In this document: piece by piece, positions 21,155 to 63,966 of the stretch
Layout: every line of letters begins with the position of its first letter
Numbering within the stretch: the first letter of the stretch is position 1
IMG/VR virus record: IMGVR_UViG_3300025141_000034
Coordinates: 1-64,000 of that record
Reading direction: 5' to 3' (one strand)
DNA: 64,000 bases
Source of the DNA: a virus
The notes under the pieces: generated by a model
What the model was told of the DNA's origin: nothing
The model's database searches: none
What the model saw: the letters and a program-made list of their open reading frames with translations, nothing else
Position numbers and translations under genes: made by a program

Positions 21155-21166
21155 CCGGGAGCTTGG

Positions 21167-23289: not shown

Positions 23290-23290
23290 G

Positions 23291-27612: not shown

Positions 27613-27644
27613 ACTTAAAAGAAATTACACCCAAGGGATAAGAT

Positions 27645-38309: not shown

Positions 38310-39848
38310 ATGTATAGAATACTTACAGCTAGTAAAGATGCTTATATCACAAATAAGATCATCAATAATGACATAAGGGCAACAGATGCTAATACAGGTC
38401 AAGCTGGAACGCTTGATCTATTTAAGCTTTATGCTGAATCTACATCTGGATCAGATACCTCTCCCACTGAGCTTTCAAGAGTGTTGATAAAGTTTGATCT
38501 AGATCCACTTAGGTCGATCACAGGATCATTTTTAGACTATTCTCACTCCTCGTTTAAGTGCTTTTTAAAGCTAAAAGATGTCTACGGTGGCCAGACAACA
38601 CCCTCTAATTTTAGATTATTAGTTGCTCCGCTATCTAAGTCATTTGATGAAGGTGTGGGAAGGGATATAATTTCATTTTCCGACCTTGACTCTTGCAATT
38701 TTGTCACGTCCTCTGTATCCGGTGAGACTCCAGCGACATGGACACTTACGGGATCAAATAAGGAGGGTGTTCTTGGAAGCGATGATCTTGACATCATTAC
38801 AAGTGGCAATCTTCATGATGGTAACGGTGTTACCTTCTTATGGAAAGATCAGCTATTTGAAACCGGAGATGAAGATCTTAATATTGATATAACCACCATC
38901 GTATCCGGCGTCTTGGCTGGACAGATTCCAGATCACGGGTTGAGAATCTCATATTCAGGAACACAGGAGACAGATGAGAAGACTAGGTTTGTTAAGCGGT
39001 TCGGATCTAGACACGCAACTACTTTTGAAAATAGACCTAGCATAGTCATTCACTATAACGACAGGCAGGAGGATCATCACAAGAGCTTCTTCTTTAATCT
39101 CACGGGATCTATATTTTTAAATAACTTTCACAGAAGCCAGCCTGCCAATATGCTATCAGGATCAACTGCAACTGCCGTAAAGGGAGATAATTGTGTAGTT
39201 GTTCGTGTTGTATCTGGATCAAATTCTCAAGGAACCTATTTTTCAAAATCAATAACAGGATCTCAGCACAAGATAGGAGACAGTTATATAACTGGTGTAT
39301 ACTCTGCTACTTTTGCCATATCTGAATTTGCATCAGGGACATTGAGAGATGAGGTAATTAATGCAGCTTCAGCATCTTTTGATGTCTTCTGGGGCTCAAC
39401 TGATTACACACTTGGATATCACACCGGTTCTCTTGTGATTAACAACGTCAGGAGAACAAGCTTTGATAACTCTCCAGATAAGCTATTTTTAAATGTGACA
39501 AATTTAAAGTCTAACTATAGATCATTTGAAAAGGTAAGATTGAGGGTATTTGTGGAAAATCTAGGAAAAGAGGTTGTCTTTAAAAAGGCACCGCTTGAGT
39601 CATCAAGTGAGATATTTACTCAGATGTACTATAGGGTGAGAGATGCATTTAATGGAAAAATTGTTGTTCCATTTGACAAGGCATACAAGTCGACACTTCT
39701 CTCAACTGACTCTGATGGAATGTTTTTTGACTTCTACATGGATACTCTGTCATCAGGTAGGGTATACATCTTTGACTTTCTAATAAAGGATTTCGGAGCT
39801 GATAGGGTCTTTACCAATGTGGGAAATAAATTTCGTGTGGATGAATAA
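38310..39848 (+). CDS. Virion/baseplate-associated protein (DNRLRE-like N-terminal beta domain)
   Basis: ASKDAYI, SRVLIKFDL, NIDITTIV, HGLRI, RPSIVIHY pattern; lies within the baseplate module. Confidence 0.6.
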   Translation: MYRILTASKDAYITNKIINNDIRATDANTGQAGTLDLFKLYAESTSGSDTSPTELSRVLIKFDLDPLRSITGSFLDYSHSSFKCFLKLKDVYGGQTTPSNFRLLVAPLSKSFDEGVGRDIISFSDLDSCNFVTSSVSGETPATWTLTGSNKEGVLGSDDLDIITSGNLHDGNGVTFLWKDQLFETGDEDLNIDITTIVSGVLAGQIPDHGLRISYSGTQETDEKTRFVKRFGSRHATTFENRPSIVIHYNDRQEDHHKSFFFNLTGSIFLNNFHRSQPANMLSGSTATAVKGDNCVVVRVVSGSNSQGTYFSKSITGSQHKIGDSYITGVYSATFAISEFASGTLRDEVINAASASFDVFWGSTDYTLGYHTGSLVINNVRRTSFDNSPDKLFLNVTNLKSNYRSFEKVRLRVFVENLGKEVVFKKAPLESSSEIFTQMYYRVRDAFNGKIVVPFDKAYKSTLLSTDSDGMFFDFYMDTLSSGRVYIFDFLIKDFGADRVFTNVGNKFRVDE

Positions 39849-42800
39849 TGTCAAAAGAAGATCGTGTACTTGTTCAAAATAAGCCCAAGCTATTTAAACC
39901 TGCTACAATTAGAGGAATTAAAAAAGGGCCGGGAAGAACCAGAGAGACAAGTCTCTCAGATCTAAAAGATACAAACATAGAGAGTACGTCGTCATTTAGG
40001 TATGATCAGCCTGGTGATGGAATAAAGTCAACACAGCAGCTTGACATAGACTGGAGTGACTTTGAGAATCACACATTCTTTAACTCAGCAGTCTCAAAGG
40101 TAAATGTCGCATTTGATAGAATAATCAATGACTTTCCCTTCGATGGAACGAGAAGGAATATTGAGGCGTACACAGACTCTCTAACGGGATATGAGAAGTA
40201 CATTCTAGACATATTCCCTAGGAATGTAGGATATCTAAATTTTTTGGGAAGTAGCACAGCAGGTCTCGACCAGGGAATCTTTATAAAGGTCAGAGATCAG
40301 GCAGGAAGTCTATTTCCACAGTTTTCAAGTCTCAATACCGGAGAGAACGTCTTAGATCCAAGCACAGGGTCGTTCTCAATTGAGATGCAGCTTCTTTGTG
40401 CAGCAGCCACAAATAATGAGCAGGTCATATGTCAGCGTCTAGTGTCAGATAGCTATGGATTTGGATTACTCCTGTCTGGATCATCTTCAACAACAGAGGC
40501 ACGAATTCTTTTCTCTGTAATGTCTGGATCAAGCACCCAAATAGCATCTGGAACAATTGACAAAGGATCATTTCAACACGTATGCGCTGTGTGTGATAGA
40601 ACAGATGGAGTCAATAAGCTTAGGCTATATTCAAATGAAAAGTTCATTGGTGAGTCAGATGGTCAAGTAGAGATAGGTGACGTGGGATTTACAGCTGATC
40701 ACTACTTTACAATCGGATCAGGATCAATACAGCACCTAAGCGGAACTGATAGCGGATCCGAGACACCCGCTTCGAAATACACTCCTTTGGAAACATTTTC
40801 AGGTTCTATGGATGAGTTTAGATTCTTTAATTCTGTTAGAGCACTTGACGATCAAAAGCGGTATGCTAAGAAGACAATCTACTCATCTCACGATCTTAGG
40901 CTGTACTTTAAGTTTAACGAGCCAAGCGGATCTACAGGCGTCAATGATGTTGTCTTAGACAGCTCTGGTAAGTCACTACACGCTAGGGTGACAAACTACC
41001 TTGATGCTGGTTCCGGAATAGCTCTGAGAAGCTCTAGCTCCTTCTATGGATCAGAAATTAAGTCTCCCATGGTTGATGAGGATATTAACCTCGCACCTGT
41101 GCTATTTCCAAAATTTGAAAGAGTCACTGAGTTAAATACGAAACTTTTAACAACTGCAAGCCTGTACGATAATGAGAATCCAAATCTCATAACGAAGCTA
41201 ATTCCACAACACTACCTCGAGGACGGTCAGTACTTTCAAGGGCTTTCGTCAATAGACGGAGGAATAGGTGGGCACTACTCTGGATCATCCATTCCGGGAA
41301 CAGGCGACCTGGGCTCAGCACAGCTTCTTTCTGCCCTTCTATTCATATACGCAAAACAGTTTGATGAGATCAAGCTATTCATCGATGAATTCTCAAATAT
41401 CATTCACGTCGACTACGATGCCTCAAACTCTGTCTCAGATCCATTTCTTCAATTTGCTGGAAAGTATCTCGGAATAGAGCTTCCTAGAATCTTTAACAAT
41501 GCAAGCATCATTCAAGGTGTAGATGGAGAGAATCTAGGCTTGGATCAGGCAAAGGCTGCTAACTCACTAAACTATGTTCAGAACTTGATTTGGAGAAGAA
41601 TTCTGACAAATATGGGTGAAATTACAAGGTCGAGAGGAACTAAGCACAGCGTCAAGGCGCTTATCAGATCAATTGGAATTGAACCAGATAACATCTTAAG
41701 AATTAGGGAGTTTGGTGGCCCCTCTACAAAGACGCTTAGAAATTTACGCGTCAACAGATCAGAGGTCTCAACCATGCTAGACTTCTCTGGATCACTTGGA
41801 GTTCCTTCCCAGGGCTGGACAGCTTCTAATCTCAACTATCAGGGATTTTCAACTGGCTCATCACAATCACCTAGAATAATGTCACCCTATCTAAGCGCAA
41901 GTAGATTTGAGGTGGGATTTCCAACACCGATCGGAACCTTTGTAAGTAAGCACATAGACTACACCACGACAGTGCTCACTGGGTCAGTTAATTTTTCAGA
42001 TGGTAAGTTTAATCCCATATGGAATCACAGCGTTCACGGACACTCAAATAATAATAATGATGGTCTTTTTACATCTGGCTCCTGGTCCTATGAGGCAATA
42101 TACCAGATTCCAAAGCTTACAACAGGCTCTCACTTCTTAACTCAAAGCCTCGCTAGAATGCATGTTACAGGAGCATCATCACCTTGTGATAAGCATGGTG
42201 TTATTTTTAATTTAATTGCGTACTCTGGTTCAAGAAGAATTGACTTATTTGGAAGACCGGGATGGGCTCAAAATCTAGTTTCATCACCTGAGATGAGACT
42301 TATCTTAACAGGTCCTGATATTTTTGATGGAAATCTCTGGAATGTTTGCTTCGGAAGGTTTAGATCTGATGACCCAACCTCAGGGAGCGGAGTTCACGGT
42401 AGCTCCTCTTTTTATCTACGTTGCTCTAGAAATAATTACGGAGAGCTCAAGGAGTATTTTACCACAGCTAGCCTGTTTAAGGGTGAACGTGATTCAGCTA
42501 GCATCTATCAGGGCGGGCTACAACAGAGAGTCTTATCGTCCTATAACGAGCTAGGATCGTTTATTGTAATCGGCTCTCAGAGCATTGATAGATCAACCAG
42601 GCTTTTAAACGACGTTACTAGACTACCAGATGATGAGTGGTCTGCCGCTAGGTACACACAATTTTCAGGAAGAGTAGGTCACATTAGATTCTGGTCAAAA
42701 GCAGTGACGAATACTGAGTTCGAGGAGCACACTAGAAACTTTAAGTCGCTAGGAGTTGACAATCCAAAGATTAACTTTAACTTTGATAGAACAACAACAG

Positions 42801-43621
42801 GTTCGTTTGGAAAATTAAGACTTGACGTCTCTACAGATCAGCCGACCACAAAGTCAGATGCGCTTGGTACGATAACACTTACAGATTTTTCTCAACATTT
42901 TGTGTTCAGCGGATCAGCCCAGCGTCCTTGGAGCATATTTCAGTCATCTGCAAAGCTCGAAGCCTCCGCTGTAAAGGTAGCCTCAGCCAGCTTCTTTCAC
43001 ATGTCAGGATCAGGATTTGAGCCCAATAGAGAGAGGGTGATTAAGCCTCACACATTTCACTATAGCCATATTTCTCCTCACTTTGACCTATCTGAGACTG
43101 ATAGCAAAGTGAGGGTTAGAAGCTACCTGGAACCAGATAAGATAGAGGCAAGTGACTACGCATATCCCGCACCGCTTTATGACATCCCAAGGTCAGATAT
43201 TCCAGATGATGATATAAGATTTGCCATCGACTTTTCAATTGTCCAGGCATTAAATGAAGATATCATGACTCTCTTTTCCTCACTGGACTTCTTTAATAAT
43301 GCACTCGGCGATCCAAATTTAATGTTCGACGACTACTATCCAGATCTCGAGCAGCTAAGAAAGATTTATTTTAATCGTCTTGTAGATAAGATTAATATTA
43401 AGCAATTTTTTGAGTTCTTTAAGTGGTTTGATACAATGCTAGGTGTCATGATTGAGCAATTAATTCCCAAGAAGACTAATTTTAATGGAATTAATTTTGT
43501 GATAGAGTCTCATGTTCTTGAGCGACACAGGATGAGATATTTATCAGATGATATTTATTTAAAGCTATCTGAAAGAGAGTCAACATTTTCAGATCTTGTT
43601 GACAAGAATCTCGAGGACTAG
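39848..43621 (+). CDS. Large baseplate protein with two LamG-like domains and a gp7/gpI-like wedge segment
   Basis: FQHVCAV...FSGSMDEFRFFN...LYFKFNE; WRRILTN...RGTKHSVKALIRSIG; WNVCF...FSGRVGHIRFWSKA. Confidence 0.75.
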   Translation: MSKEDRVLVQNKPKLFKPATIRGIKKGPGRTRETSLSDLKDTNIESTSSFRYDQPGDGIKSTQQLDIDWSDFENHTFFNSAVSKVNVAFDRIINDFPFDGTRRNIEAYTDSLTGYEKYILDIFPRNVGYLNFLGSSTAGLDQGIFIKVRDQAGSLFPQFSSLNTGENVLDPSTGSFSIEMQLLCAAATNNEQVICQRLVSDSYGFGLLLSGSSSTTEARILFSVMSGSSTQIASGTIDKGSFQHVCAVCDRTDGVNKLRLYSNEKFIGESDGQVEIGDVGFTADHYFTIGSGSIQHLSGTDSGSETPASKYTPLETFSGSMDEFRFFNSVRALDDQKRYAKKTIYSSHDLRLYFKFNEPSGSTGVNDVVLDSSGKSLHARVTNYLDAGSGIALRSSSSFYGSEIKSPMVDEDINLAPVLFPKFERVTELNTKLLTTASLYDNENPNLITKLIPQHYLEDGQYFQGLSSIDGGIGGHYSGSSIPGTGDLGSAQLLSALLFIYAKQFDEIKLFIDEFSNIIHVDYDASNSVSDPFLQFAGKYLGIELPRIFNNASIIQGVDGENLGLDQAKAANSLNYVQNLIWRRILTNMGEITRSRGTKHSVKALIRSIGIEPDNILRIREFGGPSTKTLRNLRVNRSEVSTMLDFSGSLGVPSQGWTASNLNYQGFSTGSSQSPRIMSPYLSASRFEVGFPTPIGTFVSKHIDYTTTVLTGSVNFSDGKFNPIWNHSVHGHSNNNNDGLFTSGSWSYEAIYQIPKLTTGSHFLTQSLARMHVTGASSPCDKHGVIFNLIAYSGSRRIDLFGRPGWAQNLVSSPEMRLILTGPDIFDGNLWNVCFGRFRSDDPTSGSGVHGSSSFYLRCSRNNYGELKEYFTTASLFKGERDSASIYQGGLQQRVLSSYNELGSFIVIGSQSIDRSTRLLNDVTRLPDDEWSAARYTQFSGRVGHIRFWSKAVTNTEFEEHTRNFKSLGVDNPKINFNFDRTTTGSFGKLRLDVSTDQPTTKSDALGTITLTDFSQHFVFSGSAQRPWSIFQSSAKLEASAVKVASASFFHMSGSGFEPNRERVIKPHTFHYSHISPHFDLSETDSKVRVRSYLEPDKIEASDYAYPAPLYDIPRSDIPDDDIRFAIDFSIVQALNEDIMTLFSSLDFFNNALGDPNLMFDDYYPDLEQLRKIYFNRLVDKINIKQFFEFFKWFDTMLGVMIEQLIPKKTNFNGINFVIESHVLERHRMRYLSDDIYLKLSERESTFSDLVDKNLED

Positions 43622-43624
43622 AAG

Positions 43625-46600
43625 ATGCCAGTATCTCCCTTTAAAGATAGGTTTGGAAAGGCTTTAGCTCTAACCGGCTCAGCTTCAGGATCATCTCCGC
43701 CTTCTGTCGGCGTAAGCTCATCATTTAAGATACTGAATACAGCAGCTGGAGGAATGAAGACAGCTAAGATTGACATCTATAGACAGGGTGTGAGCATAAC
43801 ATCAAGACGATATATCAGGAGAGATTCACCCTCAACAGTTAACGTATCTGGTCAGACTGCAACAATTGGCTCACTTCCAGTCTTAACATCTAACGGCATG
43901 GACGGTGAGACACTAGAGGAGATCCACGCTATTGAGGTTAGGGATTTTGGTCAACCCAAGCTATTCGTTGACGATGAGCCATTTGAAGACATGGCCTCCA
44001 TGAAGATCCATACCAGAATCTCATCAGATATAACCTCCGCGTATGGTGGTGCGATAGCGTATCTAAATGATACCAATCAGCAGCTATATCCAGTAATATT
44101 ATCTAATGTTTCAATGAAATATCCGGATCAGATGGACGGTGTCATCGAGCCATTTCCAATCAGAGAGGTTATAAGTAACAGATCTGCTGAGACTCCGTTT
44201 GTTGCCCACAGGGTAAGGGCAGATATTTTAGATGGAAATATTGAGGAATCTTACGGCTCTGATAGGGTGACACAGATTATGTCTGTGACAGCTTCACAGC
44301 AAATTGATCCATTTATAGATTCTGCTGAGATAGCTATGGCAGATGGTGGTACATTTACGCTATTTGCACCAGGATTTACATCTGATCTTCAGCGAATTTT
44401 ACCACCCTTTCTTGACAGAGGTTCACCCGGTGCTGAGGGTAAGGAGAGATTTTGTAAGATTCTTGTTGGAACAGGATCTCTAAGGGATTTAGGTCTCATT
44501 GACAGCCATCACAAGTCAGCAGGTTCAGGATTCACCTATGGAAATAATCCAGAAGGAACAGATTCACTAGCATTCGGTGGGCTTCTCAGTACAGGCTCTA
44601 CAAGCATGTCAAGATTCTTAAGCAAGCCCCCGCGTCTTGAGTTAAGGGAGACAGACTCTAGAACTGGATCATATCCGACTATCAATAGAACAGGTGATAG
44701 GAGTAGACATGGAAAGTATAGCATTAACTTTGACGATAGAAAGACAGTCATCTTTACATCTGCTTCTGCTGTGTACCCACAGGTTTTAAACTTTGACTCC
44801 CCAAGCTTTATCTTTCCAACGAGCTCACTAGGAAAGGTCACAAGAAATCTAAGAAAAGGTGTGTCAGACATACGTGTTGAGTTTACACCAGGAGAGGCCT
44901 TAGGGCCATATGACGATAGCCTGATATCTCTGGGATCAAGTTCATTCTACATGACAGGAACAACAACCGATATAATGGATGGATTTTCTGGTCCGCTCAA
45001 GAGTAAGACACAGATATTTTTTGACGTCACTCCCAGTGAGACACTTACGCTGACTAGATCGCCCAATAGTAGATTTAGTATATTGGATTCAGGTGCAGAA
45101 TCTACAAAGACAGGATTTGCATACTGGAATAGCACATCTCGACGGTGGGAGCAAATAGGGCTTAAAGATCCTGCAACAGGGGCTGATATTAAGTTTGACT
45201 ACGCAGCAGAAGGCTCCGCAATAAACAATGTCACTAGTGGAACAAACACATATCCCCAGCAGTTTACACCATGTCAGCACACGACATTTACAAAAGGTCA
45301 AATAATTGGAAAACCTTTCAATAGTGTTCTTAGGTCAAGGCTATATCACCTAATAGGTTCTCCAACAGTCTCTTCTTTTGCGCCGTTTAAGACCACCTAT
45401 CACGCAACAAGCAGCCAGACGATAAGCATGTCTGACTATATCTCACACCCATTTCTCTTAGAAAAAATCGTCGTTAAGATGGAGGGGCGTGCACAGAGAG
45501 TGCACCCTAGGGCAAAAGAGGGTGCTGCGATTAGGCATCAAGATGATTACATGTTTTTCATCTACAGACAGGAAAGGAGAAATCCAAGCGGAAGCTTTAG
45601 AGGGGGTGGGCCTGACGATAACTCACCAGGAACGCCGACGCCGTCAAATTTCTTCAGAGTGGATTCTGCGACTGATATCTCAGGAAGCCAACGATTTCTT
45701 GTTTGCAGCGGAGCGATGACATTCTATCAGGGAACTGTTGCTACAACAGATGCAGGATCAAATAGAGTTACTTACGACTATAAGCCAGTTAACTCTCCAG
45801 CATTCTCCTATGATTTTAACATTCTAGCTGCAGGAGCAACACAGAGAGTTGGAGCGTTTACAGGATCCATTAAGCTAGAGATCGAACCAGCAGTGGCAAC
45901 ACAGGGAATAAAGGGTAGGTCAGTTATCTTTGATAGTGATTCTCCAAATGCAGCAACAAGAGGTGCTGGTATCTATCACTACTGGCCCGGTGGAACAACG
46001 TCAAAACCATTTATGCACGGTGGGCATAGAGTCAATATTACAGACTCCTATGACATGGTCAAACCCTCAATATATACAGGAAAGGCTGGAATTGATGCGT
46101 CATACGGCCAGTGGACATTTACTCAAATAACAAATGGTACTGTTCCAAAGTCAAGTCTCGGACCAAGACAGCTTCCAATAACTGAGATAGATTCAAGAAC
46201 CTTTAGGCCTTTAGGCGGACCCATCGGTGACCCTATTGAATTTGGAAATAATACAAATGCAGCTAAGGGAATGGCTCCGAGAAGGGATGCAAATCAGTCA
46301 GCTAAGTCACCCTACATTCTATTTCCTGAAGATAAGATTGTCTTTGGTCTAGAGGCAGCCATTGCGCCAGGAGACATATCAAGCATGACAGGGTCAGGAA
46401 ATGCTGGTGGAGGATTCGGTGGGCAAAATTCACTTACCGGATCTAAGCTTGAGATATTTCAGTCAGACTCTAGACAGACAATTGTATTTTACGGATCACT
46501 CATAAGAGATGGAAAGGAACATCACGACACACTTAACCAGCCGTTGACATCTGACGCCATTCACGAGATGATCTTCGAGCCAGTCGTTGATCAGTGGGAC

Positions 46601-47632
46601 ATATCTTCAGAAGCTGTAAATGCAGGAACATATGCTGACAACTATGTTACAGGGACTATGACATCTGCTCCATATCCTCACAACGCAGATGCAGATGAGT
46701 TCTCTAATAATCTCAATTCAGTTGTTAGAGGTGTGGCTGGAAGCTTTATCAAGGGGACAGCACCTAATCGTGCTGGGTCTTTTCAAAGATCTGTCACCAT
46801 GTTTGACAGCTCTCAGAGATTCTATGACACGATAATGCCAGATCTTAAGACATATGTCAGACGATCAGGCGGATTTCAAGAGCTGCAAGCGTCAGGATCG
46901 ATGAGCACAATAGTCTTTAATCCGACTAAATTTTACATCGAGGGCGACGGTCATAGAATGCCATTCCCATATGATGGAAATCCTACGAGAAATATATCTG
47001 ATTCTACAAACCTATTAGTAATATCAGCCGCAGGATCTAGCTATCTGTATGGATCGTCGCAGTCGTCTCTAATTAGAAGACTTCTCTTTATGATTGGATT
47101 TGAAGGCGGAACATTTGACACGTATACCACATTTACCGGTAAGACGGGAGCAACCACTACAACTATAGCGTCATTTGCTCACGCACACCCACAGTCAACT
47201 GGCGCAATGGGATATAGGTATGGAATACAAAATATCTATCCAGAAAATCCCAGAGCCGTATTTAGAAGAGATAGCTATGGTCAATTTAGAGATATGCTTG
47301 AGCAGAGAAAAGAGGGAAGATTTTTTGAACCATTTTTATCTGACATAGATAATTTAAATCTTAGAGGTAAGAGTGAGAGCACCGTCGGCGATCCAGCTGT
47401 ATTCTGTAAGTTTACTAAACCAAGTTCAGATGAATCAGAAGATCCCTATCTAACAACGTGCTCTAATATGAGCTTTGCCTCAACGTCTTCACTTCCATTC
47501 TTCGATGGTGAGATTGTTAATATTACCAATCCAACTCTACTTAAGACAGTTGCTGTGGTGAAGGGAACAACCCTCCCAGCTGCAGTTCAGACAGCCCTGC
47601 AGACTCCTGGAATTAATTCTAAAAAGGGTTAA
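43625..47632 (+). CDS. Large S/T/G-rich virion structural protein
   Basis: 1335 aa ORF in the tail module with beta-rich composition; no specific family recognised. Confidence 0.65.
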   Translation: MPVSPFKDRFGKALALTGSASGSSPPSVGVSSSFKILNTAAGGMKTAKIDIYRQGVSITSRRYIRRDSPSTVNVSGQTATIGSLPVLTSNGMDGETLEEIHAIEVRDFGQPKLFVDDEPFEDMASMKIHTRISSDITSAYGGAIAYLNDTNQQLYPVILSNVSMKYPDQMDGVIEPFPIREVISNRSAETPFVAHRVRADILDGNIEESYGSDRVTQIMSVTASQQIDPFIDSAEIAMADGGTFTLFAPGFTSDLQRILPPFLDRGSPGAEGKERFCKILVGTGSLRDLGLIDSHHKSAGSGFTYGNNPEGTDSLAFGGLLSTGSTSMSRFLSKPPRLELRETDSRTGSYPTINRTGDRSRHGKYSINFDDRKTVIFTSASAVYPQVLNFDSPSFIFPTSSLGKVTRNLRKGVSDIRVEFTPGEALGPYDDSLISLGSSSFYMTGTTTDIMDGFSGPLKSKTQIFFDVTPSETLTLTRSPNSRFSILDSGAESTKTGFAYWNSTSRRWEQIGLKDPATGADIKFDYAAEGSAINNVTSGTNTYPQQFTPCQHTTFTKGQIIGKPFNSVLRSRLYHLIGSPTVSSFAPFKTTYHATSSQTISMSDYISHPFLLEKIVVKMEGRAQRVHPRAKEGAAIRHQDDYMFFIYRQERRNPSGSFRGGGPDDNSPGTPTPSNFFRVDSATDISGSQRFLVCSGAMTFYQGTVATTDAGSNRVTYDYKPVNSPAFSYDFNILAAGATQRVGAFTGSIKLEIEPAVATQGIKGRSVIFDSDSPNAATRGAGIYHYWPGGTTSKPFMHGGHRVNITDSYDMVKPSIYTGKAGIDASYGQWTFTQITNGTVPKSSLGPRQLPITEIDSRTFRPLGGPIGDPIEFGNNTNAAKGMAPRRDANQSAKSPYILFPEDKIVFGLEAAIAPGDISSMTGSGNAGGGFGGQNSLTGSKLEIFQSDSRQTIVFYGSLIRDGKEHHDTLNQPLTSDAIHEMIFEPVVDQWDISSEAVNAGTYADNYVTGTMTSAPYPHNADADEFSNNLNSVVRGVAGSFIKGTAPNRAGSFQRSVTMFDSSQRFYDTIMPDLKTYVRRSGGFQELQASGSMSTIVFNPTKFYIEGDGHRMPFPYDGNPTRNISDSTNLLVISAAGSSYLYGSSQSSLIRRLLFMIGFEGGTFDTYTTFTGKTGATTTTIASFAHAHPQSTGAMGYRYGIQNIYPENPRAVFRRDSYGQFRDMLEQRKEGRFFEPFLSDIDNLNLRGKSESTVGDPAVFCKFTKPSSDESEDPYLTTCSNMSFASTSSLPFFDGEIVNITNPTLLKTVAVVKGTTLPAAVQTALQTPGINSKKG

Positions 47633-47641
47633 TGAATAGTA

Positions 47642-48253
47642 ATGGCAACAACGACACTATATGATTCTGATCTTAGAAAAGTAGAATCCATTACTGTCAG
47701 GTCAGGATCAGATGAGGGAGATATTGACGTAACAATATTTCCAAACAGGATTCAGATAGGTTTGGATGATAGCGACTTCAATCATGTCAATGTAGTGTCA
47801 GGAAGCCTCAAGGTAACTGACAGGATTAACGGAAAAATACTTCACTATACACATCATAACTTTACCGTTGCATCAACAAGTGTCAACTATATTCCTATGA
47901 GCTCAACAACAGAAACTACAACTGTAACAGATCAACAGGTAGGATTTCAAGCACCCCACAACGGCCAGCTTAAGAAGGTTTTAACTAAGGTAAATGTTGT
48001 GTGGGGAACTAACCTGGCCCATAGCACAACAATTGCATTTCACAAAGGTCCTGACGGAACTGAGAGTGTTAGTGCGTCAGCAACAGAATCTGGCACAGTA
48101 GCGCTGATAGCTTCAAATACTACTAAAACAGCATCTTTCTCAAGCTCAACATTTAGTGCGGGTGATACAGTTGCAATTTCAATAGACCCATATGCAAGCA
48201 CTTCTGGAAAGGTAAGAATGACTTGTGTGTGGGAATATGACACTAACACATAA
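47642..48253 (+). CDS. Small T/S-rich virion (fibre/decoration) protein
   Basis: C-terminal domain paralogous to the ORF at 2..265. Confidence 0.65.
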   Translation: MATTTLYDSDLRKVESITVRSGSDEGDIDVTIFPNRIQIGLDDSDFNHVNVVSGSLKVTDRINGKILHYTHHNFTVASTSVNYIPMSSTTETTTVTDQQVGFQAPHNGQLKKVLTKVNVVWGTNLAHSTTIAFHKGPDGTESVSASATESGTVALIASNTTKTASFSSSTFSAGDTVAISIDPYASTSGKVRMTCVWEYDTNT

Positions 48254-48267
48254 TTAGTGAATAGGAG
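48250..48267 (+). promoter_or_regulatory. Candidate late promoter motif + SD (ATAATTAGTG...AGGAG)
   Basis: Identical 10-mer to 35971-35980, followed by AGGAG and a GTG start. Confidence 0.45.
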
Positions 48268-48272
48268 AGACA

Positions 48273-49253
48273 GTGGCTGGAATACTTGACAACAAACTTC
48301 GGATCATGGACGTTGTAGTAACAGAGGAAGGAAAGCGCCAGATCACATCTGGAAAGATGAATATTGAGTTTGCAACGTTTACTGATGGCCACACATTTTA
48401 TCAGGGAGATGTGGCTAGCGGATCAGCAGATGCTTCAGATAGAATATTTTTAGAGGCTGTGTGCCTTCCAAGGGATCAGATCACGTTTGAGACAGATGAC
48501 TCAGGAAATCTAGTGTCATTTACTGGAGGAGATTACGAGGTCGGATCTGATGGAACTCTCTATCAGGGAACAGACAACAGGAGGCTTGATCCTGTTTCAA
48601 GTGGATCAGTCTTCTCAAGCCTTGTGGATACAGTTCTCTCTTCTTCTATTGATAATTTTAAAAATCTTCAAACAATTGGAACAAAGACAATATTTGATGA
48701 TCATGCGTTTCAAACAGATGTTGACTTTATTGATTTTTATATTTCAGAAAATTCTCCAATGATAGGAGGTGCTGATGATGTTGATGCATCAATTAGCATA
48801 GACATCATAGAGCCGTTATTTTTGGATTATCGAACGTCTCACATCGATAATTTTCAGTTTCTACCTCCAATAATCACGTCTGATAGGTCGTCAACTGGAG
48901 CTGAGGAGTCATTTGGAGAGTACACAGACCTTAATCAGCTTGTGTATCAGGGGACCGAGGCGACGTGGATGACAGCATATGGTTCACGAAGCACATACTC
49001 TACACTTTACGGATATCAGTATTCTGATATTGAGTTTACAAAGAATAGTAAAGATGCAAATATCATGTTTCAAGTCTTTGAGTCAGGTGGAACAGTTGAC
49101 TCGAGGCTGAAGAAGCTTGACGTTATTGATGCAGGTGTGTATGTCACAGATGAGGGACTTTCCTATCAGACATTTTTTGTCGGAAAGGTCTTTATTGATA
49201 GTGTTGGACAGCCTACATTTGTTAACATATTTCAGATAACACTGGCGGAGTAA
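48273..49253 (+). CDS. Virion protein; N-terminus paralogous to 58585..59292
   Basis: MAGILDNKLRIMDVVVTEEGKRQI...FATFTD vs MGFLDHSTNNIILDAVLTDKGRQLL...YALSD. Confidence 0.65.
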   Translation: MAGILDNKLRIMDVVVTEEGKRQITSGKMNIEFATFTDGHTFYQGDVASGSADASDRIFLEAVCLPRDQITFETDDSGNLVSFTGGDYEVGSDGTLYQGTDNRRLDPVSSGSVFSSLVDTVLSSSIDNFKNLQTIGTKTIFDDHAFQTDVDFIDFYISENSPMIGGADDVDASISIDIIEPLFLDYRTSHIDNFQFLPPIITSDRSSTGAEESFGEYTDLNQLVYQGTEATWMTAYGSRSTYSTLYGYQYSDIEFTKNSKDANIMFQVFESGGTVDSRLKKLDVIDAGVYVTDEGLSYQTFFVGKVFIDSVGQPTFVNIFQITLAE

Positions 49254-49256
49254 AAA

Positions 49257-56451: not shown

Positions 56452-56462
56452 TAGGATTTAAC

Positions 56463-58529
56463 ATGTCGTCTACGCTATCTGATCTAATAGAGAATTATGG
56501 TTATTCATCAATGCCCAGCAAGGGAGTAAATCAGTCTGACATACCAATTCCAGGTGATGTCGAGGCTGAGTTTCAGTACAACTACTTTGTCAAAGATGAG
56601 ACAACGACACGTGATGTATCTATCAGAGGTGACTCGATAACTGCATTCACAACCCTCTCAGATGACGCATCTGAGGCAGAGAGATTAGTTGCCCTTGCTC
56701 AATTTGACGTTCCTCGATTGGTCAATATTAGGTGGACACCTGCAGTTCTGGAGTCAATAATTACTGATGAGGGCTCTGAAACATCTTCTAGTATTGGTGT
56801 GACAATAGGCGATAATTTATCTAATGTGTTATACGAGGAGGTGATGACAAGCAACCAGTATAGCGGAATAGGCCTCCAGGACGCCGAGGGCCTAGGGATG
56901 TTGACAGATATGGCAAAGATATGTGTCAATGCATCTAGCCTTCCAATTGAATTTGTAACATCTGACTCTTCTAGCGAGGCAACAGAGTCAAATCTTGACG
57001 TTGTCAATCAGTGGTTCGATGCACTGAGCTCTGGCCTGGATTCTTCAATGCTTGGGTATGGAGGTGACACTCACGGCGGCAACAGGACATTAGATGGATC
57101 AACTAAGGAGCTTTTAAGAAATGCTCTTGCAAGCTATCAGTCCGAGGGAACATATAGTTTTGCAAATAGGACAGCAGAGAGAGAGGCTGCAATTAATGAC
57201 ACCCTTAGCAATAATCCTACAACATTTGATATCGGAATATCTATTAGTAATGTACTAGCAGATGTCCTTGGTGATAAGTGGTCTTCGGACGGCGGTAGCG
57301 CATATTTTGAGGAATTTAACTCTATCAAGGATGTTCTTAGTATGATAGCCACAGCTGCAATTACACAAGAAACAGCTGGTCAGATAAGCGATAATGATTA
57401 CGACATTAGCGGAACGCCAGTGACATACAGAGTCGTCCAGAGCATCGCAGATCAAACGTCTGATAGTCAGTATGTCGCTCAGGTCACCGGTTATATAATT
57501 GAGAAACAGGAGATAGATGAGAACGGAAATATCCTACAGATGGATCCACTTGTCTGTGAGGGAGGTGACATAGGATCTTTTGTTGATCCGAATATCATGT
57601 ATGGACGGGGATATCGCTACAGGGTCAGAACTGTTACTTATCTAGAGTTTAGCGCAATTAATACCTATCCCGGAAATGAGTCTAGAAACGAGACTGTTGT
57701 TGTGGGGATGTTTGTTGCATCAAAGGCTAGCAAGGCTGTATCTGTAATATGCATAGAGACGACCCCGCCAAAGCCTCCGGCTGACATAGAGTTTAACTAT
57801 GACGGCTTTAACGGATCGCTTGATATATCATGGTCATTTCCCTTAAACAGGCAGAGAGATATTAAGCAGTTTAGGGTATTTAGACGTGCCTCAATAGATG
57901 ATCCATTCGAGCTAATTAAGTGTTATTTCTTTAATGATGCTGACACAGTTCCAAAGACTCCAGAGATTTCTGATCCAGATAGCTTGCTAAGCTCAACATC
58001 AGCAAGGCTAAGCGGTGCATTAATTCAGGTTACAGACTCTGCAGTAGCTCTATGCAGAGATTCTGACTTTAATGAAGACTCTAGGTACATATATGCCCTT
58101 ACAAGCGTAGATGCGCGAGGAATGAGTTCAAACTATTCTTCTCAATATGAGCTCTCATACGATAAGTTTAAGTCAAGGATTGTCCTAGACTACGTGTCTC
58201 AATCAGGTGCCCCAATGCCCTATCCAAATCTCTATCTTAAGCGAGAAGTATTCATTGATGCGCTAAAAACATCAGGATACAACAATATGACAGTTTTATT
58301 TAGACCTGAGACGCTGGTCGTTACAGACTCTAGCGGAACAAGTCTTGATTATCTATCAAATAGTGATGATATGCCTAGCTATAAAATATCAATGATAAAT
58401 CTTGATAATCAAAAGTCTAAGATGATTGATATTTATGTTAGAGATATCAGGGGTGCATCATCTGAGATAGAAGAGGGAGTTGAGTATGAGACGACAACTA
58501 GAGTTGCCACGCTAATAGATTCTTCCTAA
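56463..58529 (+). CDS. Acidic virion protein with C-terminal FN3-like domains
   Basis: GYIIEK...FVDPNIMYGRGYRYRVR; PPKPP...LDISWSFP...FRVFRR...YIYALTSVDARGMSSNYS. Confidence 0.65.
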   Translation: MSSTLSDLIENYGYSSMPSKGVNQSDIPIPGDVEAEFQYNYFVKDETTTRDVSIRGDSITAFTTLSDDASEAERLVALAQFDVPRLVNIRWTPAVLESIITDEGSETSSSIGVTIGDNLSNVLYEEVMTSNQYSGIGLQDAEGLGMLTDMAKICVNASSLPIEFVTSDSSSEATESNLDVVNQWFDALSSGLDSSMLGYGGDTHGGNRTLDGSTKELLRNALASYQSEGTYSFANRTAEREAAINDTLSNNPTTFDIGISISNVLADVLGDKWSSDGGSAYFEEFNSIKDVLSMIATAAITQETAGQISDNDYDISGTPVTYRVVQSIADQTSDSQYVAQVTGYIIEKQEIDENGNILQMDPLVCEGGDIGSFVDPNIMYGRGYRYRVRTVTYLEFSAINTYPGNESRNETVVVGMFVASKASKAVSVICIETTPPKPPADIEFNYDGFNGSLDISWSFPLNRQRDIKQFRVFRRASIDDPFELIKCYFFNDADTVPKTPEISDPDSLLSSTSARLSGALIQVTDSAVALCRDSDFNEDSRYIYALTSVDARGMSSNYSSQYELSYDKFKSRIVLDYVSQSGAPMPYPNLYLKREVFIDALKTSGYNNMTVLFRPETLVVTDSSGTSLDYLSNSDDMPSYKISMINLDNQKSKMIDIYVRDIRGASSEIEEGVEYETTTRVATLIDSS

Positions 58530-58584
58530 GAATTATTTTACCAGAATACAATGTGAATTGTATATTTACAACCAGGAGTAAAAA

Positions 58585-59292: not shown

Positions 59293-59309
59293 TTGGTAAG
59301 AGATAAAAT

Positions 59310-60608
59310 ATGGCCACATTTAAAGAAATTTCCGCAGCTGACATTAAGACAAGCAGGTCAGTATTAAATCAGTTAGTTGATATTATTCAAGAGGATATCT
59401 CAGGATCAACAACAAGAAAGAAGTACCAGGTATTTGTAACCGGTGGTGTGGGCCCAGGTGTGACATCATCCCTATTTCAGACTGTATATGACCAGGACTA
59501 CACACTTCAGACTGCAAATCCAATTTTCGATATGACCTTTGGAATGTACTCAGGTAGCGCAGATGTAGCGTCAGCCTCTAGTGGTCAAGACAGCGCGGGT
59601 AAGATTCTATTTCCATCTAACTCACTAATGATGCGTGAGAAGATCAACGTATACAGACAGTTTTCACAGCTGCTTCTCGGTAATGCAACATATCAGTTTG
59701 CGTCGCCCTTTACGACAACACAGCCTCCAACTTCAAATGGAATTGATAACGCTTTATTCTTTACATTCAAGAGGCTATTTGCTCGCGATAAGATTAAGCG
59801 TGAGACCTTCGCTATGAAGTTCTACCAGTCAGCGTCAAGGGCTCCGGGTGATCCCACAGCATCTGGTCAGGGTCCACTGTTTGGAAATATGGGTCCAAAT
59901 ATTAATCTTGCAACAGTCTCTGGTTCAGCCATTTTTACAGATATTGGATCTGCTACAGCCAAGGAGACCTCTATAGGCGGTGAGGTTGGTAACATTGTAG
60001 ACTCGTCTAACACAAACAGAAATGTTGGACTTCTCTTCTACGATATGGGAATTGGAATCCTTGACGTCGACAAGGTGATCTCTGCATCACAAAAGGCATC
60101 AGGAGTCATAGATGCGATGACCAATGCAGCGTTTCAGGGAGCAGCGAAAGGTCAGACCATAATCGGCTACGGTCCTGCAGGTCCTGTTGGAGCACATCCG
60201 GGATTAGACGGAGGAAGGGGAAATAGACAGGCAAAGTTCGTTCCTGACTTCGTGGTTTCAGCGTCAATGGATAACATTCTTGATCACTTCGCCTCAGTTA
60301 GATTCCAGTCAGGATCTCTCACAGCTATCACGTTTCAGAATGTCACAAACATCAATTCAACTTTAATATTCTGCAGGGCGACGTCAGATGAGTTTAACTA
60401 CTCTTCCAATCCAACATTTACTGACTCTACGGGAAGAATTAATGTTATTGATGAGGGTGAGGAGAACACACAGAGAACATTTTCATTCGTTAGCACGATC
60501 GGCCTATATGACGGAAGAAATAATCTACTAGCAGTAGCAAAGCTAAGCAGGCCCGTTGAGAAGAATGACGAGAAGGACATGACATTCAGGATTAGGCTTG
60601 ACTTCTAG
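59310..60608 (+). CDS. Baseplate/tail-fibre attachment protein (C-terminal GLYD..LLAVAK motif)
   Basis: FNYSSNPTF...TIGLYDGRNNLLAVAKLSRPVEK...FRIRLDF. Confidence 0.65.
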   Translation: MATFKEISAADIKTSRSVLNQLVDIIQEDISGSTTRKKYQVFVTGGVGPGVTSSLFQTVYDQDYTLQTANPIFDMTFGMYSGSADVASASSGQDSAGKILFPSNSLMMREKINVYRQFSQLLLGNATYQFASPFTTTQPPTSNGIDNALFFTFKRLFARDKIKRETFAMKFYQSASRAPGDPTASGQGPLFGNMGPNINLATVSGSAIFTDIGSATAKETSIGGEVGNIVDSSNTNRNVGLLFYDMGIGILDVDKVISASQKASGVIDAMTNAAFQGAAKGQTIIGYGPAGPVGAHPGLDGGRGNRQAKFVPDFVVSASMDNILDHFASVRFQSGSLTAITFQNVTNINSTLIFCRATSDEFNYSSNPTFTDSTGRINVIDEGEENTQRTFSFVSTIGLYDGRNNLLAVAKLSRPVEKNDEKDMTFRIRLDF

Positions 60609-60630
60609 TCCTAACTGGAGGTTTTAGCCC

Positions 60631-63600
60631 ATGTCAATCATTAAAATAACTCCAGACCTAATTGAACAGGTTACGATGACAACACACCCAAAGAGGGTGT
60701 TTGTCTCATCCTCACAGGGCGGTGTTAATGACAAACCTGTGATGGACTCTGGCGTCTTAAGTCCGACAGGAACCATGGGTCAGGTCAGCCTAATGGCGAG
60801 AAATAACCGTGTGATCAAGGGAATTAGAGAGTTTAATCCTGATAGTGCGCTATTCAATGAAGACTTATCTAAGACGTTAATCTTTTTAGATTCAGCTGCT
60901 AAATGGCCTGCATTAGCAGAAACAATCGGATGGAATCCGTACGACCTCGGAAACTTCTTGGGAGTTGCAACATCAGGATCTCACATATCAACAGATGATG
61001 GAAACTGTGCAGGTGCTCTTGTTACAATTAATAGCATTCCTACAAACGGTCATACACTTATCTTGACAGATGCTGATGGAACTTCTGACACATATACGTT
61101 TAGCACTAGTGTTACACAGGAAGATAGCACAAAATCCAATGTCGGGATATCAGGTGTTGATACGACTTCAGGTGTTGCTACCTCATTAAGAATATCAATT
61201 AATCTCGCCAGCCTAGACGATGATATTCAAATCACAGCAGCTATTCCAGCATCTAATGAGCTAACTGTCTATATGTTGACAAAAGGCACAGCAGGAAATG
61301 GAAAGACGATAACAGGAACTGCGGTATCTGCTGAGTCTATCTCTGTAAGCTCATTTAGCGGAGGTACACCTAAGCTGGACTCTGAGGGCAGATACATGGG
61401 TGCTGTTAGACAGCTAAGCTTACCAGCAAAGAATTCAAAGGCCTTTAGCATCACAAGGTTCAGACCTCCATTTCTATTTCAGAGTGATGAGAATCAAGGT
61501 CAAGGAGGTGATAACTCATCTCCTGAAAGCTTTGACGCCAAGAGGCGGATTGTGAAGAACCAGGTGAGGAATATTCTTCTCCCTCACTACATGTCAAAAT
61601 TCACACATCCCAACTACGCATACACAAACTACCACACGTTAAACTTCTTTACATCATCGATTAACTGGCAGCTCACCAAGCCATACGCCACGTCCACAGA
61701 AATTACTAGCTCACCCTATAAGTGGATGAATGGAAGTGTGCTAGCCTATCCCTGTCTAACAGGATCACTGAATACAACATTTACTAGTAATGAGCAATAC
61801 GCGCTTAGGGCTAAACGATTTGACGGTCGGTACACACCTGAGAGTGCATTTACATTTGACTTCTACATAAATCCCAGGTATGGAAATGATGTTAGACCTA
61901 CAGCTGGAGGTCCCAAGAAAGGAGACTTTAGGCCGGGAACAATCTTCCACATGAGTGGTACATACGCAATAAGTCTTGTTTCAGGATCAAGCAAGGCTGC
62001 AGACGGCTCTGCGAATGGATTTAGGATACTTGTACAGCTATCACAGAGCGCTGAGTATCCTCCCTCAAAGTGGAAGATATTACCGGGTCATGATAGACCA
62101 ATTTTTGGAGCAAACAACTCAAACTATAAGCAAGATCCGTATGGGTATGCCTGGGTCTCACCTGATAACGTTCTTAGGCGAGACCACTGGCATCACGTCG
62201 CGATTCGGTGGGGAGGATCAAAGGTAAATAACGGCACAGGTAGCTTTGTTATTGACGGAAATATTGTCTCTGAGTTTGTAATTACAGGAACAGATAGCAT
62301 CAGGCCTTTTGTAAATCATTCATTTGGAGGTGTTAGGGCTAGGGCAGATAGATTCCTAGCAGGAAGGGCAGATCCGAATGCTCTGTTTATAGGAAACTTT
62401 TATGAGGGAACAAATGTAACTGGCTCTGGTGGAGCAAATACAACAATTGAGAGATTTTTTAATCAGGCCGCTCAAAAAGCAGAGGGATTTACACCAGCTG
62501 TCTCAGGAGTTCTCGGAAGAGGAGGTGACCCTAGCAGCTTTACGTTTAATCATCCTTTAAATGCTGAGGTCCATGATCTAAAGATATTTAACTCACACAG
62601 GACACTCCACCAGATAATGACAAGCTCAGTGGAAGGTCCCACTGATACATCTGATCTTATATTTTATGTTCCGCCATTTTTTATAAATGAAAATAGAAAA
62701 AGAAATTTTCTAGTTACTGCTGTCTCATCATCAAGAAGAGAGTACTTTACTGACACAGGCGGTGCTAAATATGACGATGAGTCAGCTGAGGAGCCCTTTA
62801 ATTATCCGACTGATGTCTTTACACAGCCATATACATCACTTCCGTTCAACGCCGGTCTGTCAATGACAGTTGACGCAACTGATATCAGTGTTGAGAATTT
62901 TACAAAGGATATTGCCAATAATGTATATCCCAGGCTTGTGTATCTTACATCGTCAGTTGACTCATCTCTGGTCACATCAGCTGCAGCAACAAGGGCATCA
63001 AAAGGTGCAGTACAAGACTATCTATTTTGGAATTTTAATACGGGATCTATTAGAAAGAGATCTTTAACAGTTCTTCCATGTGATAATGGAAAATTTAAGC
63101 CGAACTATTCTCTAATCTACACAGGATCAGATACAGATGGCGTAATGCTCACTGGATCTGAAGGATACCTTTATAGGGATGATCTCGGTGAATTTGACGC
63201 AAGTCTGATAAATCTAAGTGACATGTTTGTCACAAGACCACAGCCGCTAACACCAATGATGGGCTGGGATGGGCTTGGTTATAATAGAATATCACATACA
63301 CTATCTGTCTACACAGGCTCAGATCACGCTAGCCCGCCTGAAGCGTCACCCTATAGCCCAAATGCTAAAATTAAAGATGGAACAGCAGATGTTCACTTTA
63401 TAGCATATCAGGCATCACTTGATCAGTCTAGCAATGAGATTGTCTTATTTAACATACCAAATCTATTCTATGGAAATAGAATTGAACCTGGAAGCTTTAA
63501 ACTAGAAGATGAGAACATATCTGGCTCCAATGGAAAGATAAAGATCACACTTCGAGATGATGGTCTGGGAACACTGTATAGGGCAGACTGCGAGACTGCA

Positions 63601-63966
63601 CACGCGACATCTAATGGTGTTGGAAATATCTTTTACGATGAGGGAGTTGTCTTAATTAAGTCACCCCATCTGGCTCAGCTTGGAAAGGAGCAGTTTAAGA
63701 TGACGTTTAACGGCGAGCAAAATACTCATGTTCTATCAATAAGGGTTCCATGTCAGCCAGGTCTCATCAATAGCTCATCAAATCCTGGATTTAAGGTTCT
63801 ATCTGCCTCACTAGACGCAAATGATATTGAATCTGAGTTTGTATACATTACAGGGATCAATTTTCACGATGACAACATGAATGTTATAATGAAAGCTAAC
63901 CTTGCGCAGCCTGTTGTGAAGAGAGACGACGACGACTTTCTATTCAGGGTAAAGATGGATTTTTAA
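60631..63966 (+). CDS. Large virion protein with LamG-like domain; C-terminus paralogous to 59310..60608
   Basis: FTFDFYINP, WHHVAIRW, LFIGN, EVHDLKIFN; GVGNIFYDEGV...NSSSNPGF...ITGINFHDDNMNVIMKANLAQPVVKR...FRVKMDF. Confidence 0.7.
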   Translation: MSIIKITPDLIEQVTMTTHPKRVFVSSSQGGVNDKPVMDSGVLSPTGTMGQVSLMARNNRVIKGIREFNPDSALFNEDLSKTLIFLDSAAKWPALAETIGWNPYDLGNFLGVATSGSHISTDDGNCAGALVTINSIPTNGHTLILTDADGTSDTYTFSTSVTQEDSTKSNVGISGVDTTSGVATSLRISINLASLDDDIQITAAIPASNELTVYMLTKGTAGNGKTITGTAVSAESISVSSFSGGTPKLDSEGRYMGAVRQLSLPAKNSKAFSITRFRPPFLFQSDENQGQGGDNSSPESFDAKRRIVKNQVRNILLPHYMSKFTHPNYAYTNYHTLNFFTSSINWQLTKPYATSTEITSSPYKWMNGSVLAYPCLTGSLNTTFTSNEQYALRAKRFDGRYTPESAFTFDFYINPRYGNDVRPTAGGPKKGDFRPGTIFHMSGTYAISLVSGSSKAADGSANGFRILVQLSQSAEYPPSKWKILPGHDRPIFGANNSNYKQDPYGYAWVSPDNVLRRDHWHHVAIRWGGSKVNNGTGSFVIDGNIVSEFVITGTDSIRPFVNHSFGGVRARADRFLAGRADPNALFIGNFYEGTNVTGSGGANTTIERFFNQAAQKAEGFTPAVSGVLGRGGDPSSFTFNHPLNAEVHDLKIFNSHRTLHQIMTSSVEGPTDTSDLIFYVPPFFINENRKRNFLVTAVSSSRREYFTDTGGAKYDDESAEEPFNYPTDVFTQPYTSLPFNAGLSMTVDATDISVENFTKDIANNVYPRLVYLTSSVDSSLVTSAAATRASKGAVQDYLFWNFNTGSIRKRSLTVLPCDNGKFKPNYSLIYTGSDTDGVMLTGSEGYLYRDDLGEFDASLINLSDMFVTRPQPLTPMMGWDGLGYNRISHTLSVYTGSDHASPPEASPYSPNAKIKDGTADVHFIAYQASLDQSSNEIVLFNIPNLFYGNRIEPGSFKLEDENISGSNGKIKITLRDDGLGTLYRADCETAHATSNGVGNIFYDEGVVLIKSPHLAQLGKEQFKMTFNGEQNTHVLSIRVPCQPGLINSSSNPGFKVLSASLDANDIESEFVYITGINFHDDNMNVIMKANLAQPVVKRDDDDFLFRVKMDF

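Follow-up and report, generated by a model that had tools for sequence, protein, structure and literature searches.

HMW1C glycosylates HMW1 at N-X-S/T, the heptosyltransferases TibC and Aah modify AIDA-I and TibA at a strand-loop-strand motif, and GtfB is the non-catalytic partner in the accessory-Sec O-GlcNAc pair GtfA/GtfB. In phages, glycosyltransferases (GTs) encoded by mycobacteriophages O-glycosylate the virion, with glycans on the C-termini of capsid and tail-tube proteins (Freeman et al., 2023, according to the accessible part of PMC12619734), and the host recognition cluster or 'LPS' (lipopolysaccharide) islands of marine myophages are proposed, in the accessible part of PMC7029224, to modify the host O-chain. 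Here we describe a tripeptide, [ST]-G-S, in the virion proteins encoded by a 64,000-nt stretch of viral DNA (the window), which makes up the opening 64 kb of one contig of 125,024 bp (IMG/VR record IMGVR_UViG_3300025141_000034). In this uncultured marine T4-like phage, as in its cultured relatives, the outer tail proteins carry [ST]GS at about six times the chance level. Our preferred explanation, with a rough probability of 0.45, is that [ST]-G-S is a sequon read by a phage-encoded modifying enzyme, most likely for O-glycosylation. We infer that the motif undergoes modification in the first place, that what is added is a sugar, and that a pair of GT4 enzymes encoded nearby adds it.

Five proteins of the window, all encoded on the + strand, as are all the large open reading frames (ORFs), contained significantly more [ST]GS sites than expected from 2000 composition-preserving shuffles per protein: a 512-amino acid (aa) outer baseplate protein with several β-sandwiches, encoded just after a gp6-like gene (38310..39848; 8 vs. 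0.90, p 0.0005); a 1257-aa baseplate or fibre protein consisting of a LamG-type sandwich, a helical middle and a second sandwich (39848..43621; 18 vs. 2.17, p 0.0005); a 1335-aa tail protein of no known family (43625..47632; 11 vs. 2.89, p 0.0005); a 432-aa tail protein (59310..60608; 4 vs. 0.72, p 0.0045); and a 1111-aa fibre-like protein with a weak LamG match (60631..63966; 10 vs. 1.79, p 0.0005). The approximate counts of a preliminary description of this DNA (8, 18, 10, 4 and 10, in the same order) were exact or off by one. Pooled, the five proteins hold 51 sites against 8.35 ± 2.81 in 5000 shuffles (z 15.2), the maximum among which was 21, and the enrichment thus survives shuffling. Local 51-aa composition predicts 9.5 sites, and dipeptide frequencies predict 22.1. 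Low complexity or patchy composition was rejected as a source of the motif, given this local expectation and the chance level of tripeptides of the same composition (see below). Proteins of 203 and 326 aa encoded between these genes (47642..49253, +) carry two sites each (2 vs. 0.44 and 2 vs. 0.52), individually not significant.

The signal reaches past the coordinates of the preliminary description, because 10 of the 100 ORFs of the genome were flagged as [ST]GS-enriched and five of them lie outside the window, also on the + strand. These are a gp13-like neck protein (contig 84162-85352; 4 vs. 0.42), the products of contig 119217-123002 (18 vs. 5.81) and 123004-124248 (7 vs. 1.29), and two adjacent sheath paralogues of 1063 and 1161 aa with 33 % identity (contig 87308-90499 and 90538-94023; 5 vs. 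1.44 and 6 vs. 1.63), in which every site falls within a large N-terminal insertion. Enrichment is restricted to proteins of the outer tail, the fibres, the sheath insertions and the neck. The ten enriched proteins show no mutual BLAST similarity except for the sheath pair and the last 93 residues of the proteins at 59310-60608 and 60631-63966, which are homologous (29 % identity); a tandem repeat or a paralogous domain was accordingly rejected as the source of the motif. This shared C-terminal domain is also present in Flavobacterium phage immuto, Microcystis phage Mel-JY01 and Rhodothermus phage RM378, and may be an attachment or receptor-binding module. As the preliminary description had it, the sites are dispersed and not tandem, their spacings showing no period.

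The signal resides in an ordered peptide. When all tripeptides of these ten proteins are ranked, TGS (47 vs. 7.73, z 12.6) and SGS (44 vs. 10.88, z 8.8) come first and second, the third-ranked reaching z 4.4, and SSG, GSS, SGT, GTS, STG, NGS, DGS and SGN are at chance; the ranking is partly circular, since the set was picked by the motif, which does not apply to the comparison with permutations of the same composition. The (S/T)AS variants of the preliminary description do occur in excess, but their signal is weaker than that of [ST]GS (SAS, 18 vs. 7.96, z 3.3; TAS, 9 vs. 5.67). Its remark that a hydrophobic residue often precedes the motif also held (51 % of 91 sites vs. a background of 30 %), and the hydrophobic share is 42-51 % at positions -1, -2 and -4 and at the residue after the motif.

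Several other proteins of the phage are at chance or below. The 35 ORFs of 420-31852 hold 7 sites vs. about 5.5 expected, so the motif is rare in the glycan enzymes, as had been stated, and equally in the gp25-like and gp6-like proteins, without any site, and in the acidic protein at 52030-56451 (3 vs. 2.44). The gp6-like baseplate wedge protein (36475..38307, +; 0 vs. 0.71) and a 927-aa Ser-rich late protein (49257..52040, +; 0 vs. 2.05) are motif-free, as are the product of 56463-58529 (0 vs. 1.10) and that of the gene at 58585. Among orthologues, the gp6 family (68 sequences) has 10 sites vs. 38.8-45.6 expected and the 49257 family (19 sequences, 21-52 % identity) one vs. 17.7-18.8, figures that are inflated by the relatedness of the sequences. 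In both families [ST]GS lies below every permutation of the same composition, and the other permutations containing GS are low too. A search of PDB sequences with three large motif-poor proteins gave no match, and the ESM Atlas returned for 49257-52040 only leads below 0.9 to immunoglobulin (Ig)/fibronectin type III (FN3)-like families, which are not used here as evidence.

The enrichment is conserved. Of the more than 868 homologues of the 1257-aa protein, the 120 best, among them the protein of the window itself, are 42-100 % identical to it and contain 5-19 sites each, with a mean of 11.3 vs. 2.0 expected. The motif is present at reference positions 226, 291, 360, 647 and 743 in 81, 82, 98, 94 and 115 of these 120 sequences, respectively. 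In the alignment profile the first position is nearly always S or T, and not D or N, the G is nearly invariant, and the third position prefers S over T over A; the family of the 512-aa protein shows the same pattern. We also pooled by family the orthologues from 80 related IMG/VR loci, finding ratios of 6.5x for the 38310 family (78 orthologues; 440 vs. 67.2), 6.2x for the 39848 family over the 80 loci, 3.9x for the 43625 family (553 vs. 142.3) and 5.5x for the 48273-49253 family (27 orthologues; 58 vs. 10.6). Each of the 80 loci is enriched, with ratios from 2.8x to 8.7x. A tblastn search of the phage collection with the 1257-aa protein gave no match at E 1e-5.

The motif is likewise abundant in three cultured relatives. 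In immuto there are nine enriched proteins, eight of them encoded after the gp6-like gene (e.g., 26 vs. 5.91, 8 vs. 1.46 and 12 vs. 1.26); in Mel-JY01 the proteins encoded after this gene are also enriched (11 vs. 1.38, 9 vs. 0.60 and 13 vs. 2.47, among others), and in RM378 six adjacent ORFs after it have 3-5 sites each vs. 0.27-0.81 expected. SGS and TGS are among the top four tripeptides in all three phages and their permutations are at chance, the sets having been chosen by the motif. In immuto 84179-100819 HAE (10 vs. 0.23), SHA and AEG are also strongly over-represented, which points to a repeated SHAEG-type fibre motif. A general trait of T4-type tail proteins was rejected, since T4 has 2 sites vs. 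about 8.8 across 23 virion proteins, a set that excludes the long tail fibre genes 34-38, and cyanophage P-RSM6 has 24 vs. 16.9 across 15 proteins of one 50-kb stretch. In P-RSM6, a gp9-like tail-fibre connector (record 100776-102278) has 7 sites vs. 1.45, the rest of that phage being at chance. The hosts of the three relatives (Flavobacterium, Microcystis and Rhodothermus) belong to three phyla, and a host enzyme is therefore an unlikely reader of the tag.

Two adjoining GT4 genes are the best candidates for a reader. GTa (29427..30674, +; Pfam Glycos_transf_1) is a core gene of the clade and GTb (30686..31852, +; Pfam), a second GT4 gene, adjoins it in the relatives where it was seen. The EX7E motif is invariant in 45 GTa sequences and kept in 41 GTb sequences, and the best 120 of more than 6161 GTa homologues share 65-79 % identity. 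Adjacent homologues of GTa and GTb are found in immuto (E 2e-59 and 2e-52), Mel-JY01 (7e-47 and 6e-47) and RM378 (7e-28 and 3e-6). Only seven of 50,697 phage records match GTa, and all seven belong to this clade: immuto (four isolates), Mel-JY01, RM378 and LR756508.1, an uncultured genome of 484 kb. Among the 80 related loci, GTb is present in all 47 that have a sufficiently long flank; the other 33, which show no match to it, all break off upstream, and no natural loss of the pair was found. GTa is a candidate for the enzyme acting on the motif, a link that we infer.

The GT4 pair precedes the gp6-like gene by about 4.6 kb, and further upstream there is a 28-kb glycan-building island of about 32 soluble enzymes (420..28502, +; Pfam), so that phage GTs stand beside structural genes. 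The island, placed between fibre and baseplate genes on the same strand, encodes GT2 and GT4 transferases, a GDP-mannose dehydratase, NeuB with a CMP-sugar synthetase, a UDP-glucose dehydrogenase, a carbamoyltransferase, methyltransferases and sulfotransferase-like proteins. The preliminary description had proposed the neighbouring GTs as partners of the motif, which is supported for the GT4 pair by its co-occurrence with the motif across relatives, but not for the bulk of the island: in a tblastn search with all ORFs of the phage, the island was mostly without homologues in immuto, Mel-JY01 and RM378, the conserved non-structural neighbours being a nuclease and the GT4 pair.

Pfam scans of 38 island proteins gave no family for an initiating phosphoglycosyltransferase, a flippase, a polymerase or a ligase, and a crude hydropathy scan of 420-31852 revealed no polytopic membrane protein and one marginal hydrophobic segment. 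A lipid-carrier pathway (Wzx/Wzy or ABC) was therefore rejected for the island itself, although host enzymes could supply its steps. The island proteins had no Pfam match to a Maf-type flagellin glycosyltransferase even at E 0.5. There was also no Pfam family for a thymidylate-synthase-type hydroxymethylase or a dioxygenase route among the scanned proteins, many of which belong to no family, and the lack of a hydroxymethylase match weakens the case for DNA as a target of the GTs. The CMP-sugar cytidylyltransferase and NeuB-family synthase encoded at window 25304-27612 suggest that the phage makes a nonulosonic (sialic-acid-like) sugar. Three neighbouring genes at window 10687-13361 code for a choline/aminoglycoside-kinase-like protein and two nucleotidyltransferases, the second of which has a HAD domain (Pfam), an arrangement that we take to resemble LicA/LicC-type phosphocholine activation; the glycan may thus carry a phospho-head-group.

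If [ST]-G-S is a sequon, soluble phage enzymes would make activated sugars in the cytoplasm late in infection, and the GT4 pair (29427-31852) would initiate a glycan on loops that carry [ST]GS in outer tail proteins that have already folded, the proposed targets being peripheral baseplate proteins, fibres, the sheath insertion domains and the neck protein. The acceptor would be either the first Ser/Thr or the last Ser of the motif. The variable island (420-28502) would then extend the glycan with strain-specific sugars, and inner virion proteins would avoid the motif. An ordered tripeptide that is dense in many unrelated outer tail proteins fits an enzyme-read tag better than independent fold constraints, and so do its occurrence in phages of three host phyla, its absence from the T4-type controls and its avoidance in other virion proteins. 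The two GT4 enzymes are the only conserved candidate readers, and the soluble island is a plausible glycan supply. Extended to the whole group, the proposal is that a very abundant aquatic T4-like clade, to which the cultured phages of Flavobacterium, Microcystis and Rhodothermus belong, runs its own cytoplasmic protein O-glycosylation, with a tripeptide sequon, GT4 starters acting on dozens of outer-tail loops and a strain-specific chain made by a hypervariable island and containing nonulosonic acid; this wider version we put forward as tentative, at somewhat less than even odds.

Structural models placed the motif sites mostly in loops. The AlphaFold2 (AF2) model of residues 140-900 of the 39848-43621 protein, with a predicted local distance difference test score (pLDDT) of 78, has two sandwiches with a helical domain in the middle, and the first sandwich, at about residues 140-385, is of the LamG/pentraxin type; Foldseek matched it to LamG/pentraxin chains with probability 1.00, and Laminin_G_3 (PF13385) scored 32 bits, above its cut-off of 27.6, compared with 18.5 bits, below the cut-off, for 60631-63966. 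The model of the 512-aa protein (pLDDT 86.8) is a chain of carbohydrate-binding module (CBM)/Ig-like sandwiches according to Foldseek. By DSSP assignment on these models, 19 of 23 motif glycines belong to neither a strand nor a helix, and many sites directly adjoin a strand; three sites are in loops of the helical domain, two are within strands, and no motif glycine is in a helix.

Two explanations other than a modification tag concern the origin of the motif itself. The peptide could be a by-product of selection for a coding-strand DNA word, GGATC, read as GGA-TCN, an explanation to which we give practically no credence. GGA-TCN does code for 30 of the 51 motif sites of the window, vs. 39 % expected from codon use and 12 of 31 non-motif GS pairs, and GATC is mildly over-represented in the window (406 vs. 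343.7 ± 17.3; none of 100 dinucleotide-preserving shuffles reached 406). Nevertheless, 21 of the 51 sites use other codons, and in the orthologues of four enriched proteins from the 80 loci GGA-TCN codes for 641 of 1975 motif GS pairs (32.5 %) vs. 446 of 1503 other GS pairs (29.7 %), which equals the codon-use expectation (29.7 %; Fisher p 0.08). The first motif position of these orthologues draws on every Ser codon (six) and every Thr codon (four). The orthologue codon use refutes a DNA word for practical purposes, and the [ST]GS signal acts at the protein level. The second explanation, almost as likely as a sequon, is that [ST]-G-S is the preferred tight turn or bulge of this lineage between β strands, a turn of the Gly-Ser type with a small hydroxyl residue before it. 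It would have been inherited with ancient β-sandwich modules of these proteins of the outer tail and would persist under the usual constraints of the fold, with nothing reading it as a tag. This explanation stays close because of the conserved-column pattern of the sites (see below) and their position at β edges, and it agrees with the loop position of the motif glycine, with hydrophobic flanks such as are expected beside β strands, and with the β-rich nature of all the modelled motif-rich domains. Additionally, a profile alignment to PTX3, although weak (E 0.09), superposes two or more of three motif glycines on glycines of that fold, but their flanks in PTX3 differ (G-G-E, Q-E-K and S-G-R). 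Also against a purely structural origin are the chance level of the turn-equivalent NGS, DGS, SGN, SGT and TGT, the occurrence of the motif in several unrelated folds and in proteins without detectable homology, its lack in the outer tail proteins of T4 and P-RSM6, and its depletion to 0.05-0.25 of chance in other virion proteins, which fold constraints do not predict. Moreover, motif glycines are not closer to strand ends than other glycines in either model (8/15 vs. 27/59, and 5/8 vs. 23/31).

The motif could alternatively be read by something other than a GT, through phosphorylation, sulfation, transfer of phosphocholine or another phospho-head-group, or it could be bound by an assembly factor; the GT4 enzymes and the island would then serve a different target such as the host surface polysaccharide or the phage DNA. 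The order-specificity, the many unrelated carriers and the depletion elsewhere would apply equally to such a reader; the kinase-like gene beside two nucleotidyltransferases (10687-13361) and the sulfotransferase-like genes of the island would offer possible activities, and the accessible part of PMC7029224 reads marine myophage islands as modifying the host O-chain. We consider this unlikely, because neither a protein kinase nor any other protein-modifying enzyme is conserved with the motif (tblastn found the nuclease and the GT4 pair only), and the kinase-like and sulfotransferase-like genes are without match in immuto, Mel-JY01 and RM378. Several observations do weigh against the sequon that we prefer. 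Columns of the 1257-aa family alignment with a motif frequency of at least 30 % hold 8.64 sites per sequence, and rare columns 1.76, about chance; the excess thus lies in anciently conserved columns, young sites not being in excess, and there is no sign of ongoing site gain. The S/T of the motif is conserved barely more than other S/T (p 0.06 and 0.046), and its G is conserved no more than other G. The preliminary description took the motif as a marker of solvent-exposed virion proteins, a claim that fails for the largest exposed surfaces, as neither the major capsid protein (2 vs. 0.97) nor the tail tube (0 vs. 0.06) is enriched. These are the very proteins whose C-termini are the mycobacteriophage targets in the accessible part of PMC12619734, whereas here a dispersed tripeptide occurs in outer tail proteins. 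A promiscuous cytoplasmic enzyme might impose avoidance on non-virion proteins, which are at chance (7 vs. about 5.5). LR756508.1 has GTa, yet its five proteins after gp6 give a weak excess (6 vs. 1.8), and no GTb match was found in the 100 kb examined of its 484 kb. GTa and GTb weakly match the Pfam family 'GT4-conflict' (E 6e-5 and 2e-5, below cut-off), and another target of these GTs is therefore possible. Finally, the co-occurrence of the motif with the GT pair is roughly one evolutionary event, not many independent ones.

The phage is a Far-T4-type myovirus, as indicated by its virion module and its portal. It has a T4-type virion module with the gp23 capsid, gp20 portal and gp21 protease, the gp25 and gp6 wedge proteins and the two sheath paralogues, with Pfam matches to Gp23 (4e-76), Portal_T4 (1.4e-75), Peptidase_S77 (1.9e-26), sheath domains and GPW_gp25 (28.4 bits, cut-off 27.2) and the PHROG label baseplate wedge for 36475-38307; the closest portals are those of Mel-JY01 (40.7 % identity), immuto (39.9 %) and RM378 (33.3 %). 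Replication genes include PolA, RecA and DnaB-type. Since a single open frame spans the joined contig ends (about 124,740-125,024 into 1-265), the 125-kb contig represents a genome that is closed or circularly permuted. That frame codes for a product of about 180 aa, which begins MANKTQIRVTQLSGS and contains 4 [ST]GS sites. Its C-terminal end (2..265, +), whose start lies near the other contig end, was rightly listed in the preliminary description as carrying the motif (2 vs. 0.23, p 0.02). The gene order thus runs from motif-rich fibre-like genes (119217-125024 and 1-265) through the glycan island (420-28502), a PD-(D/E)XK nuclease, the GT4 pair (29427-31852) and baseplate genes to the motif-rich genes from 38310 onwards.

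Other genes of the virion region have unusual features. In the gp23-type capsid protein (contig 79196-81127; 643 aa) the Gp23 match spans residues 369-634 only, leaving an N-terminal extension of about 370 aa that this match does not explain. Between the capsid and neck genes, contig 82797-84029 shows a weak match to a tubulin/FtsZ GTPase domain (27.6 bits, cut-off 33). Directly upstream of the gp25-like gene, window 34649-35923 codes for a 424-aa protein with four hydrophobic segments and weak matches to tape-measure PHROGs.

Large sugar-gene islands are common in marine myophages and are read, in the accessible part of PMC7029224, as host-surface modifiers. A short, countable tag that travels with a conserved GT pair makes the question of the island's target experimentally direct, and with three relatives in culture (immuto, Mel-JY01 and RM378) the predicted virion peptides are accessible. 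If the motif is a sequon, it would be the first defined for phage-encoded protein glycosylation, and its sequence would allow glycosylated phage proteins to be predicted from metagenomes. The changeable sugar coat would then sit on the tail and not on the head, and it might play a part in host recognition, in the stability of the particle or in evading defences. Even a purely structural motif would be useful as a lineage marker for the clade's outer tail proteins. A literature search at the level of titles and the beginnings of abstracts found no description of an [ST]GS motif, and the Far-T4 paper PMC4360716 does not mention glycosyl, glycan, tail fiber, baseplate or sheath.

The locus shares traits with each of the known systems. 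In relation to the LamG/pentraxin/ConA-like fold (PF13385), the 39848-43621 protein has the domain with seven motif sites inside it, but the motif is not a feature of PTX3 and in the phage it also occurs outside LamG domains. The islands of PMC7029224 are similarly large, variable, rich in GTs and located within the structural region beside tail-fibre genes; the accessible part of that source describes no peptide motif, and the phage studied here is of Far-T4 type by its portal and not a pelagimyophage. As in GtfA/GtfB, two adjacent GT4-type proteins might jointly act on Ser/Thr of a surface protein. However, the substrates of that pair are serine-rich repeats and the phage candidates are not, and identity with GtfA/GtfB was rejected, since the NCBIfam GtfA model TIGR02918 scored 15.8 bits vs. 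a cut-off of 574.6, EX7E is kept in both GTs and the sites are not in repeats. HMW1C and TibC/Aah resemble the proposed system in that a soluble GT reads a very short or structural motif many times in a large β-rich surface protein ahead of export or assembly; they differ in enzyme family and motif, no HMW1C-type or heptosyltransferase match having appeared in Pfam or NCBIfam scans, and the substrates here would be phage tail proteins. The mycobacteriophage system, as described in the accessible part of PMC12619734, has phage GTs beside structural genes and, as is proposed here, the phage's own virion proteins as targets, although the island of this phage is far larger than the mycobacteriophage GT set and its glycosylation is predicted.

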